IMG/VR virus record: IMGVR_UViG_2534681772_000009
Coordinates: 1 to 5,659 of that record
Length of the DNA stretch: 5,659 nt
Direction: 5' to 3' (one strand)
Source of the DNA: a virus
Taxonomy: Monodnaviria > Loebvirae > Hofneiviricota > Faserviricetes > Tubulavirales
Below are positions 1,764-1,791 of this stretch, piece after piece. A program made the position numbers and the translations under genes. The first letter of the stretch is position 1, and every line of letters begins with the position of its first letter. The notes beneath the pieces are model-generated. The model was not told the DNA's origin. It saw only the letters and a program-made list of their open reading frames with translations, and made no database searches.

Positions 1764-1791
1764 ATTTAACATAATATACATTATGCGCACC
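1764..1791 (-). other. dif: dif, 28-bp XerC/XerD site-specific recombination (chromosome dimer resolution) site
   Basis: 1764-1791 is ATTTAACATAATATACATTATGCGCACC; its reverse complement GGTGCGCATAATGTATATTATGTTAAAT is the canonical E. coli dif. XerD arm 1764-1774, central region 1775-1780, XerC arm 1781-1791 (plus-strand coordinates). Confidence 0.92.

Follow-up and report, generated by a model that had tools for sequence, protein, structure and literature searches.

The window analysed here, a stretch of 5,659 bp from a viral sequence record, contains the 3' part of a filamentous prophage, and directly beside it lies what appears to be the chromosomal site dif of Escherichia coli. On the other side of this site stand the remnant of a recombinase gene and part of an IS2 element. 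The locus raises two questions: whether this is the working dif of a host chromosome, left intact by a phage that integrated there, and whether the recombinase on the opposite side is there by accident.

A sequence-only reading of the window had claimed an exact 28-bp dif at 1764-1791, with the XerC arm facing the phage and the XerD arm facing the recombinase and IS2. When the whole window was searched by pattern, the minus-strand sequence GGTGCGCATAATGTATATTATGTTAAAT was found at these positions with 0 mismatches (the plus-strand letters are ATTTAACATAATATACATTATGCGCACC, its reverse complement), and the order of the arms was as claimed.

1764..1791, minus strand: exact 28-bp chromosomal dif, interpreted below as attR of the prophage (exact match, unique in the window, junction alignment)
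1764-1774: XerD arm, plus-strand reading ATTTAACATAA
1775-1780: central region of dif, plus-strand reading TATACA
1781-1791: XerC arm, plus-strand reading TTATGCGCACC

No second dif-like site was detected elsewhere in the window at up to 3 mismatches, and none of 200 dinucleotide-preserving shuffles of the window matched dif. The 28-mer is the same sequence as the E. coli K-12 dif tabulated in PMC2731167. The dif of MG1655 (L003 6751-6778), located 77 bp from the hipA stop codon, was also identical to the window site. An Rfam search of the window gave no match.

Among E. coli genomes, 4,843 contained the exact 28-mer, in a total of 4,844 records, at one place per record and never at two. All but 6 of these records (4,838) were chromosomes; the 6 were labelled as plasmids. 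The exact sequence was absent from 583 of 5,426 E. coli genomes, which presumably carry a variant dif. The hipBA/ydeQRS synteny around dif was present in all relatives examined. In relatives with an identical flank dif lies between the ydeQRS/fimA region and hipA, which agrees with the placement of the locus in the replication terminus by the sequence-only reading. The KOPS motif (GGGNAGGG) occurred in the window on the plus strand at 1111 and on the minus strand at 4701, and both copies aim at dif. All KOPS in the corresponding loci of the relatives TW10590 (L001) and SF-173 (L002) were permissive and directed to the exact dif; each 9.1-kb phage copy carries two, both permissive, and the motifs of the DNA island to the left of dif (see below) are likewise dif-directed. 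The numbers are small, and the polarity weakly suggests the absence of conflict with a working dif. Taken with the sequence of the site and its single-copy status, it points to preserved chromosome dimer resolution at the window dif, and we predict that XerCD acts there in an FtsK-dependent manner.

The DNA to the right of dif encodes phage proteins. Every gene from 1792 to the window end lies on the minus strand, and the packaged phage plus strand corresponds to the minus strand of the window.

1792..5659, minus strand: 3' part of a CUS-1/YpfPhi-type filamentous prophage, running past the window end
1932..2180, minus strand: small ORF adjoining attR, YPO2281-like by position (phrog_6642 at 1e-53)
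2326..2574, minus strand: small ORF, 82 aa, YPO2280a-like by position
2663..3906, minus strand: pIV-type secretin gene, in two ORFs, 2663-3091 and 3064-3906 (Pfam Secretin, phrog_1012)
3906..4931, minus strand: pI/Zot-like assembly ATPase, 341 aa (Pfam Zot 2e-26, phrog_197)
4935..5219, minus strand: pVI-like minor coat protein (Pfam DUF2523, phrog_974)
5238..5659, minus strand: C-terminal part of a pIII-like (puvA-type) adsorption protein, truncated by the window end (phrog_3942)

The secretin (pIV) ORF, the last morphogenesis gene before dif, ends at 2663 and leaves a gap of 872 bp, in line with the earlier estimate of about 870 bp. This gap holds the two small ORFs. The one adjoining attR, of which RefSeq relatives annotate a 65-aa version at 1932-2129, had no Pfam or NCBIfam match, and the ORF at 2326-2574 had no family match in Pfam, NCBIfam or PHROGs. 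According to PMC4266046, two ORFs of unknown function adjoin attR. The two secretin ORFs both match phrog_1012 ('protein IV of M13'), one at profile positions 1-257 and the other at 271-402. The pIII-like part matched positions 403-546 of the 546 of phrog_3942; the gene is 1563 nt long in relatives.

Four single-base indels of the window are absent from TW10590, SF-173 and Yersinia pestis. One of them, the loss of a T from a T6 run near 3126, splits the secretin gene, and an intact 415-aa secretin was obtained when one T was put back. The other three (5214, 5218 and 5236) are clustered about the start of the pVI gene. These indels may be true decay or sequencing errors, and this copy of the prophage may be defective.

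Positions 1777-5659 of the window were 99.4% identical, over 3,884 bp, to the YpfPhi locus of Y. pestis NCTC5923 (L006), and the pI protein was 100% identical to its Y. pestis counterpart. A scan seeded with protein sequence, covering one genome of each species, recovered a locus in Y. pestis NCTC5923 alone. By these comparisons the phage module is the CUS-1/CUS-2 (YpfPhi) phage. Together with the presence of the pI, pIV, pVI and pIII genes, they uphold the sequence-only reading, which had recognised the arrangement of CUS-1/YpfPhi-type phages that integrate by hijacking XerCD (IMEXs). The phage part had no megablast match in INPHARED, a phage collection that apparently lacks YpfPhi and CUS-1 as phage records. 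CUS-1 and YpfPhi are modest fitness or virulence factors in ExPEC and in the plague bacillus. The phage module was present in 120 of 5,426 complete E. coli genomes, including those of UTI89, NU14, NC101, F11 and an APEC O2:K1 strain. Carrier genomes had the module at a median of 2 places, which indicates tandem copies. No phage integrase is annotated in the complete prophages of TW10590 and SF-173.

CUS-1 of E. coli O18:K1:H7 and CUS-2/YpfPhi of Y. pestis 1.ORI share with the window the order pIII-pVI-pI-pIV-two small ORFs-attR. They are likewise found in tandem arrays, with an intact dif at the 3' extremity and an imperfect one between the copies. A dif beside a CUS-1/YpfPhi prophage is an arrangement already known since these phages were described. 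The window copy differs from them in its ETEC-like background, in having the flank of a GInt-like island instead of B2-type flanks, and in its frameshifted pIV gene.

Two side observations were made on the relatives (TW10590, L001 23758-23800 and L001 31190-32814; SF-173, L002 22872-24077; Y. pestis, L006). The cargo module on the attL side, by which CUS-1, YpfPhi and the TW10590 variant differ and which falls outside the window, varies, with at least three variants in TW10590, SF-173 and Y. pestis. The two phage copies of TW10590 are joined without the attP region and one small ORF, and there is no hybrid dif between them.

The junctions of the prophage were defined by alignment to relatives. 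TW10590, which has an ETEC-type chromosome, was 99.9% identical to the window over 777-5659 and was among the closest of the matches listed. B2C, also of ETEC type, was 100% identical over 777-1794 except for one deletion. The comparison with a prophage-free relative that the sequence-only reading had proposed could be made with B2C, in which the same left flank and an identical dif are followed directly by the hipA flank. In the window the order is B2C-type left flank, dif, phage. Because the window spans the attR end only, attL, attP2 and the phage copy number were read in relatives that are 99.4-99.9% identical to it. In TW10590 and SF-173 attL reads, in window orientation, phage, ACATAACGAGT CG(C/T)ACA TTATGCGCACC, hipA flank; in the opposite orientation it is GGTGCGCATAA TGT(G/A)CG ACTCGTTATGT, located 77-79 bp from hipA, which is the native distance. 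In this hybrid site a perfect XerC arm leads into phage sequence; the site was also present between the two phage copies of SF-173. The second, imperfect dif-like site that had been anticipated at the other prophage end was thus found in relatives, at the end near hipA (77-79 bp away) as well as between tandem copies. Neither of the observations that the sequence-only reading had named as contrary to it was made: the exact 28-mer occurs once per record, and the far prophage end in relatives does carry a dif-like site.

When the four site types were aligned, the only segment common to phage and chromosome was 'ACA TTATGCGCACC aa' (window orientation), which places the crossover at the XerC arm or the adjoining central bases. 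With a crossover at this position, the window dif would be attR, its XerD arm and central region coming from the host and its XerC arm from the phage; the XerC arm of the phage is identical to that of the host. The 137-nt dif-phage junction was found in 119 genomes, compared with 120 phage carriers, a count that admits hybrid junctions between tandem copies and does not alone prove adjacency to an exact dif. The whole dif was covered by all 30 top matches listed. The outermost hybrid site of Y. pestis reads GGTGCACATAA and the one between copies GGTGCGCATAA; the former would fit a host-derived XerC arm at attL.

The phage sequence at 1792-1812 resembles the native hipA-side flank of dif in MG1655 (L003 6779-6799), aatggtaaggatggcagaatc versus aatataaaccaaggaagaatc. 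With dif included, the likeness extended over 49 nt at 86% identity in blastn, and it could be due to chance or to flank mimicry.

The anatomy of attP was read beyond the window, on the inter-copy junction of SF-173 (L002 24070-24185), in the orientation of the phage plus strand.

attP1: GGTGCGCATAA (perfect XerC arm), 11-nt spacer TGTACGACTCG, TTATGTTGAAA (XerD arm, 9/11 matches)
34 nt between attP1 and attP2: GC-rich stem-loop
attP2: as read CTTTAGCATAA-CGTCA-TTGTGCGAACC, the reverse complement of GGTTCGCACAA-TGACG-TTATGCTAAAG, with a 5-nt spacer

The XerD arm of attP1 is displaced by 5 nt, and its spacing from the XerC arm is 11 nt, not 6-7 nt. When the 116-nt attP region was folded as single-stranded DNA, the calculated energy was -31.2 kcal/mol, whereas shuffled sequences gave -11.6 +/- 2.5 kcal/mol (z = -8.0) and none of the 200 shuffles was as stable. 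In the fold the two inverted sites pair arm to arm about a bulged centre to form a forked hairpin. CTXphi has spacers of 12 and 7 nt, and about 90 nt lie between its two sites. The phage described here differs from it in having spacers of 11 and 5 nt and a 34-nt hairpin between the sites, in the absence of ctxAB, and in its enterobacterial host with a single chromosome. In other respects CTXphi of Vibrio cholerae is alike: it too has two inverted dif-like sites whose spacers are off-size, the forked hairpin, the XerC-side crossover, regeneration of dif at one end with a dead hybrid site at the other, tandem arrays, and no phage integrase (PMC4246890). The same paper classes CUS-1 and YpfPhi as CTXphi-class IMEXs.

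The dif site, the identity of the phage, the structure of its junctions, the hairpin, the single-copy status and the tandem arrays were all observed, and we consider it very probable that the window dif is the only functional dif of the host chromosome, regenerated as attR when a CUS-1/YpfPhi-type phage integrated by the CTXphi route. By this route the plus-strand ssDNA of the phage would fold so that attP1 (GGTGCGCATAA-11 nt-TTATGTTGAAA) and attP2 (GGTTCGCACAA-5 nt-TTATGCTAAAG) together mimic an XerCD substrate. XerC would swap one pair of strands at the border of the XerC arm and the central region, and the resulting junction would then be resolved through replication. One product would consist of the native left flank, the XerD arm and central region of the host and the XerC arm of the phage, which together make up a perfect dif. 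On the hipA side, a hybrid site with an 11-bp spacer would result, not recombinable by XerCD. Because of the off-size spacers, the hybrid would be inert as a duplex, and only the regenerated site would be a working dif. The prophage would in this way be locked in, further copies would stack at the regenerated dif to give tandem arrays, and dimer resolution would go on. The requirement for XerC and XerD, catalysis by XerC alone and irreversibility, which we infer for this phage, are taken from PMC4246890 and PMC4266046. Superinfecting YpfPhi often enters between resident copies, possibly by homologous recombination (PMC4266046), so not every copy need come by the Xer route.

The same junction could in principle arise if the phage used a single double-stranded attP (GGTGCGCATAA TGTACG ...) and exchanged with dif through XerC, as VGJphi does; integration would then be reversible, with two usable Xer sites flanking the prophage. 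That attP1 agrees with dif in the XerC arm and in the first 3-4 bases of the central region (TGT/TGTA) suits this alternative, but it is required in either model. The XerD arm of attP1 (TTATGTTGAAA) is 11 nt away, whereas normal spacing is 6-7 nt, and attP2, with its spacer of 5 nt, is no better suited. Moreover, the second, inverted site lies only 34 nt off and the pair folds into a hairpin (z = -8), and the published classification groups CUS-1/YpfPhi with CTXphi (PMC4246890). We regard a VGJphi-type route as quite improbable. TLCphi, another IMEX that like VGJphi uses the same host site and XerCD enzymes as the window phage, was considered too: VGJphi needs a single double-stranded attP with a normal spacer, TLCphi starts with XerD exchange and has a degenerate XerD arm, and neither corresponds to the attP found. 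The TLCphi-type route was rejected for the phage since the attP anatomy does not fit.

The two remaining alternatives to regeneration of dif by the CTXphi route are less probable still. In this lineage, prophage and dif might not have been brought together by integration but inherited or imported as one block by homologous recombination of terminus DNA, in which case the dif would be native and the phage a passive neighbour. The phage is 99.3-99.9% identical in ETEC-like strains, which have the GInt-like flank, and in B2-type strains, which have other flanks, as import would allow, and homologous recombination has been raised for extra copies in PMC4266046. However, left flanks of at least two unrelated kinds precede the dif-phage junction, with homology stopping exactly at 1763/1764, and there are near-identical island-bearing strains with an empty dif. 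This is what repeated site-specific integration predicts, and even after an import the structure of the junction would still record the original Xer-type event. Block import is very unlikely to account for the locus, and less likely than a VGJphi-type exchange. Still further from the evidence is the reading of the 28-mer as a non-functional or extrachromosomal look-alike, borne on a plasmid or a phage. The 6 plasmid records among the 4,844 exact E. coli matches speak for it. Against it stand the left flank, 100% identical to the B2C chromosome, the hipBA/ydeQRS synteny, the single exact copy per record and the convergence of KOPS on the site, and its probability is practically negligible.

The left side of dif in the window comprises an interrupted island end.

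1..776, plus strand: 3' part of IS2, with the orfB transposase at 13-765 and the terminal inverted repeat to 776 (Pfam rve, rve_3, HTH_21)
777..1618, minus strand: remnant of a ginA-like tyrosine-recombinase gene, gene 1 of the island
1619..1763, minus strand: terminal 145 bp of the island, from the recombinase start to the XerD arm, identical in B2C

Homology to the TW10590 island starts at 777, and no complete E. coli genome among the matches listed has IS2 at this position. Two lesions break the ginA-like remnant: IS2 at 776/777 and a deletion of 136 bp located between 1515 and 1516. The latter removes part of the N-terminal coding region and is also present in TW10590 but not in B2C or most carriers. 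Judged from these lesions in the sequence, the recombination module of the island is dead in the window strain. In B2C the module is intact and consists of overlapping ORFs whose products are, in order, 466, 516, 788 and 144 aa long. Pfam Phage_integrase scored 40.8 bits for the 516-aa protein and 22.6 bits, under the cut-off, for the 466-aa protein. The 788-aa protein had no sequence match in Pfam, NCBIfam or PDB and no BLASTP similarity to the second recombinase.

The recombinase end of the island abuts the XerD arm exactly (window 777-1763; L005 1247-7151; L004 406-35340 in TW10590; L010 4870-21377 in CX04), and among strains with different left flanks homology stops at the outer edge of this arm, 1763/1764. 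At the far end the MG1655-type flank '...cactcagacatg' resumes after 35 kb in TW10590 and 16.5 kb in CX04. It is followed in these two strains by an imperfect repeat, ATTTAACTTAT or ATTTACCTTAT, as against ATTTAACATAA at the proximal end. Of the XerD arm the repeat retains the outer 7 bp; its inner bases are island-type, and in TW10590 and CX04 it has neither central region nor XerC arm. This structure favours a crossover by the island recombinase within GTTAAAT over one by Xer. In B2C the far end has undergone IS1 rearrangements. The empty state, with the MG1655-type flank directly on dif, was found in about 3,000 E. coli genomes; the far junction of TW10590 is common to 55 E. coli genomes and the proximal end occurs in about 140. 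No dif-like site within 9 mismatches was present in the 49 kb to the left. The possibility that the island is itself a TLCphi-like IMEX entering by XerD-first exchange was rejected on account of this absence and of the far-end repeat, which lacks the XerC arm and the central region.

The island resembles the GInts described in PMC5385486. These have a four-gene end module that the island fits in gene sizes and order, in which two tyrosine recombinases (putative ones in the island) and proteins of ~790 and ~145 aa are encoded by overlapping ORFs, and likewise a site-specific location, imperfect direct repeats at both ends, and variable cargo in elements of 16-35 kb. Unlike in GInts, the third protein has no recombinase similarity detectable by sequence, and the island is targeted to the outer XerD arm of dif. 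Because of the third protein the island is called GInt-like here, not GInt. The recombinase gene beside the XerD arm is no accident: it is gene 1 of a GInt-like island anchored on that arm. Such a target was not found in the main text or supplement of the GInt paper (PMC5385486) or in the survey of SEs (strand-biased circularizing integrative elements) and GInts (PMC10214605), and none of the papers searched contained both 'GInt' and 'dif site'.

The cargo of the island was inspected in two strains. In TW10590 (L004 9000-17500) RefSeq annotates a nucleotidyltransferase, a ThiF/E1-like protein split by IS21, an MPN protein, an HNH endonuclease, a 3'-5' exonuclease and a restriction endonuclease, a set that looks like a CBASS-type system. 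The CX04 island (L010 13900-20900) carries, also by RefSeq annotation, retron Ec78 (PtuAB) and a DEAD/DEAH helicase. By this annotation the cargo of the E. coli islands is anti-phage defence.

On the other side of dif in CX04 (L009 10465-13438 / L010), the interval from the exact dif to hipA is occupied by a non-phage element of 2.9 kb. This element contains two hypothetical genes and an IS1 remnant, and its edge, 77 bp from hipA, reads AGTGCGCATAA TGTGTT GAACATGTTAA. From its sequence this element looks like another IMEX in the same slot.

Nine further loci from six genera contained homologues of the first recombinase with 40-81% identity (L011-L018 and L019-L023, each at about 3828-4003). 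Their genes start 133-146 bp away from a perfect copy of the XerD arm, TTATGTTAAAT. The B2C recombinase was matched at 81% identity in Pectobacterium, 56% in Yersinia intermedia, 54% in Salmonella, 56% in Proteus, 61% in E. coli (one protein in two different contexts), 40% in Acinetobacter and 44% in Pleionea. In 6/9 loci, from five genera, this XerD arm is part of a near-consensus dif, and the order is always XerC arm, XerD arm, gene. The dif of the window may lie between two unrelated elements that both target it and rebuild it perfectly, the XerCD phage on the XerC side and a GInt-like family crossing over at the outer 7 bp of the XerD arm, GTTAAAT, on the other; we find the case for and against this two-sided reading evenly balanced.

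For the window, the main value of these results is annotation: the location in the replication terminus, the identity of the phage with CUS-1/YpfPhi, and its presence in an ETEC-like background. The locus is also a clean natural case of a CTX-type IMEX that leaves dif intact. If the two-sided reading is true, the islands form a widespread, apparently undescribed class of Xer-independent, dif-targeting elements, and dif is an integration hotspot on both sides. If defence-carrying islands home to the XerD arm across Gammaproteobacteria, this would account for the high variability of the DNA right beside dif, and it would raise the question how the islands coexist with XerD binding and FtsK activation.

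Some of the homologue loci are of interest for their context. In Salmonella enterica (L015 and L016; 1-5263) the triad of phage, dif and island recurs as in the window, from diverged parts: on the XerC side a different filamentous prophage (DUF2523-Zot-secretin) with two different small ORFs, then an exact dif at 3829-3856, and a ginA-like gene (54%) with its module. The E. coli contigs L019 and L020 (3831-3858) have an identical GInt-like end with the same 457-aa recombinase in two contexts. Both have a perfect XerD arm; the sequence in place of the central region and XerC arm differs between them and is only partly dif-like. In L020, which adjoins VapE and antiterminator-Q genes, it reads GGTTCCTATAA CGTACA. 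The site in these contigs may be a secondary target; alternatively, another element may have altered a dif there.
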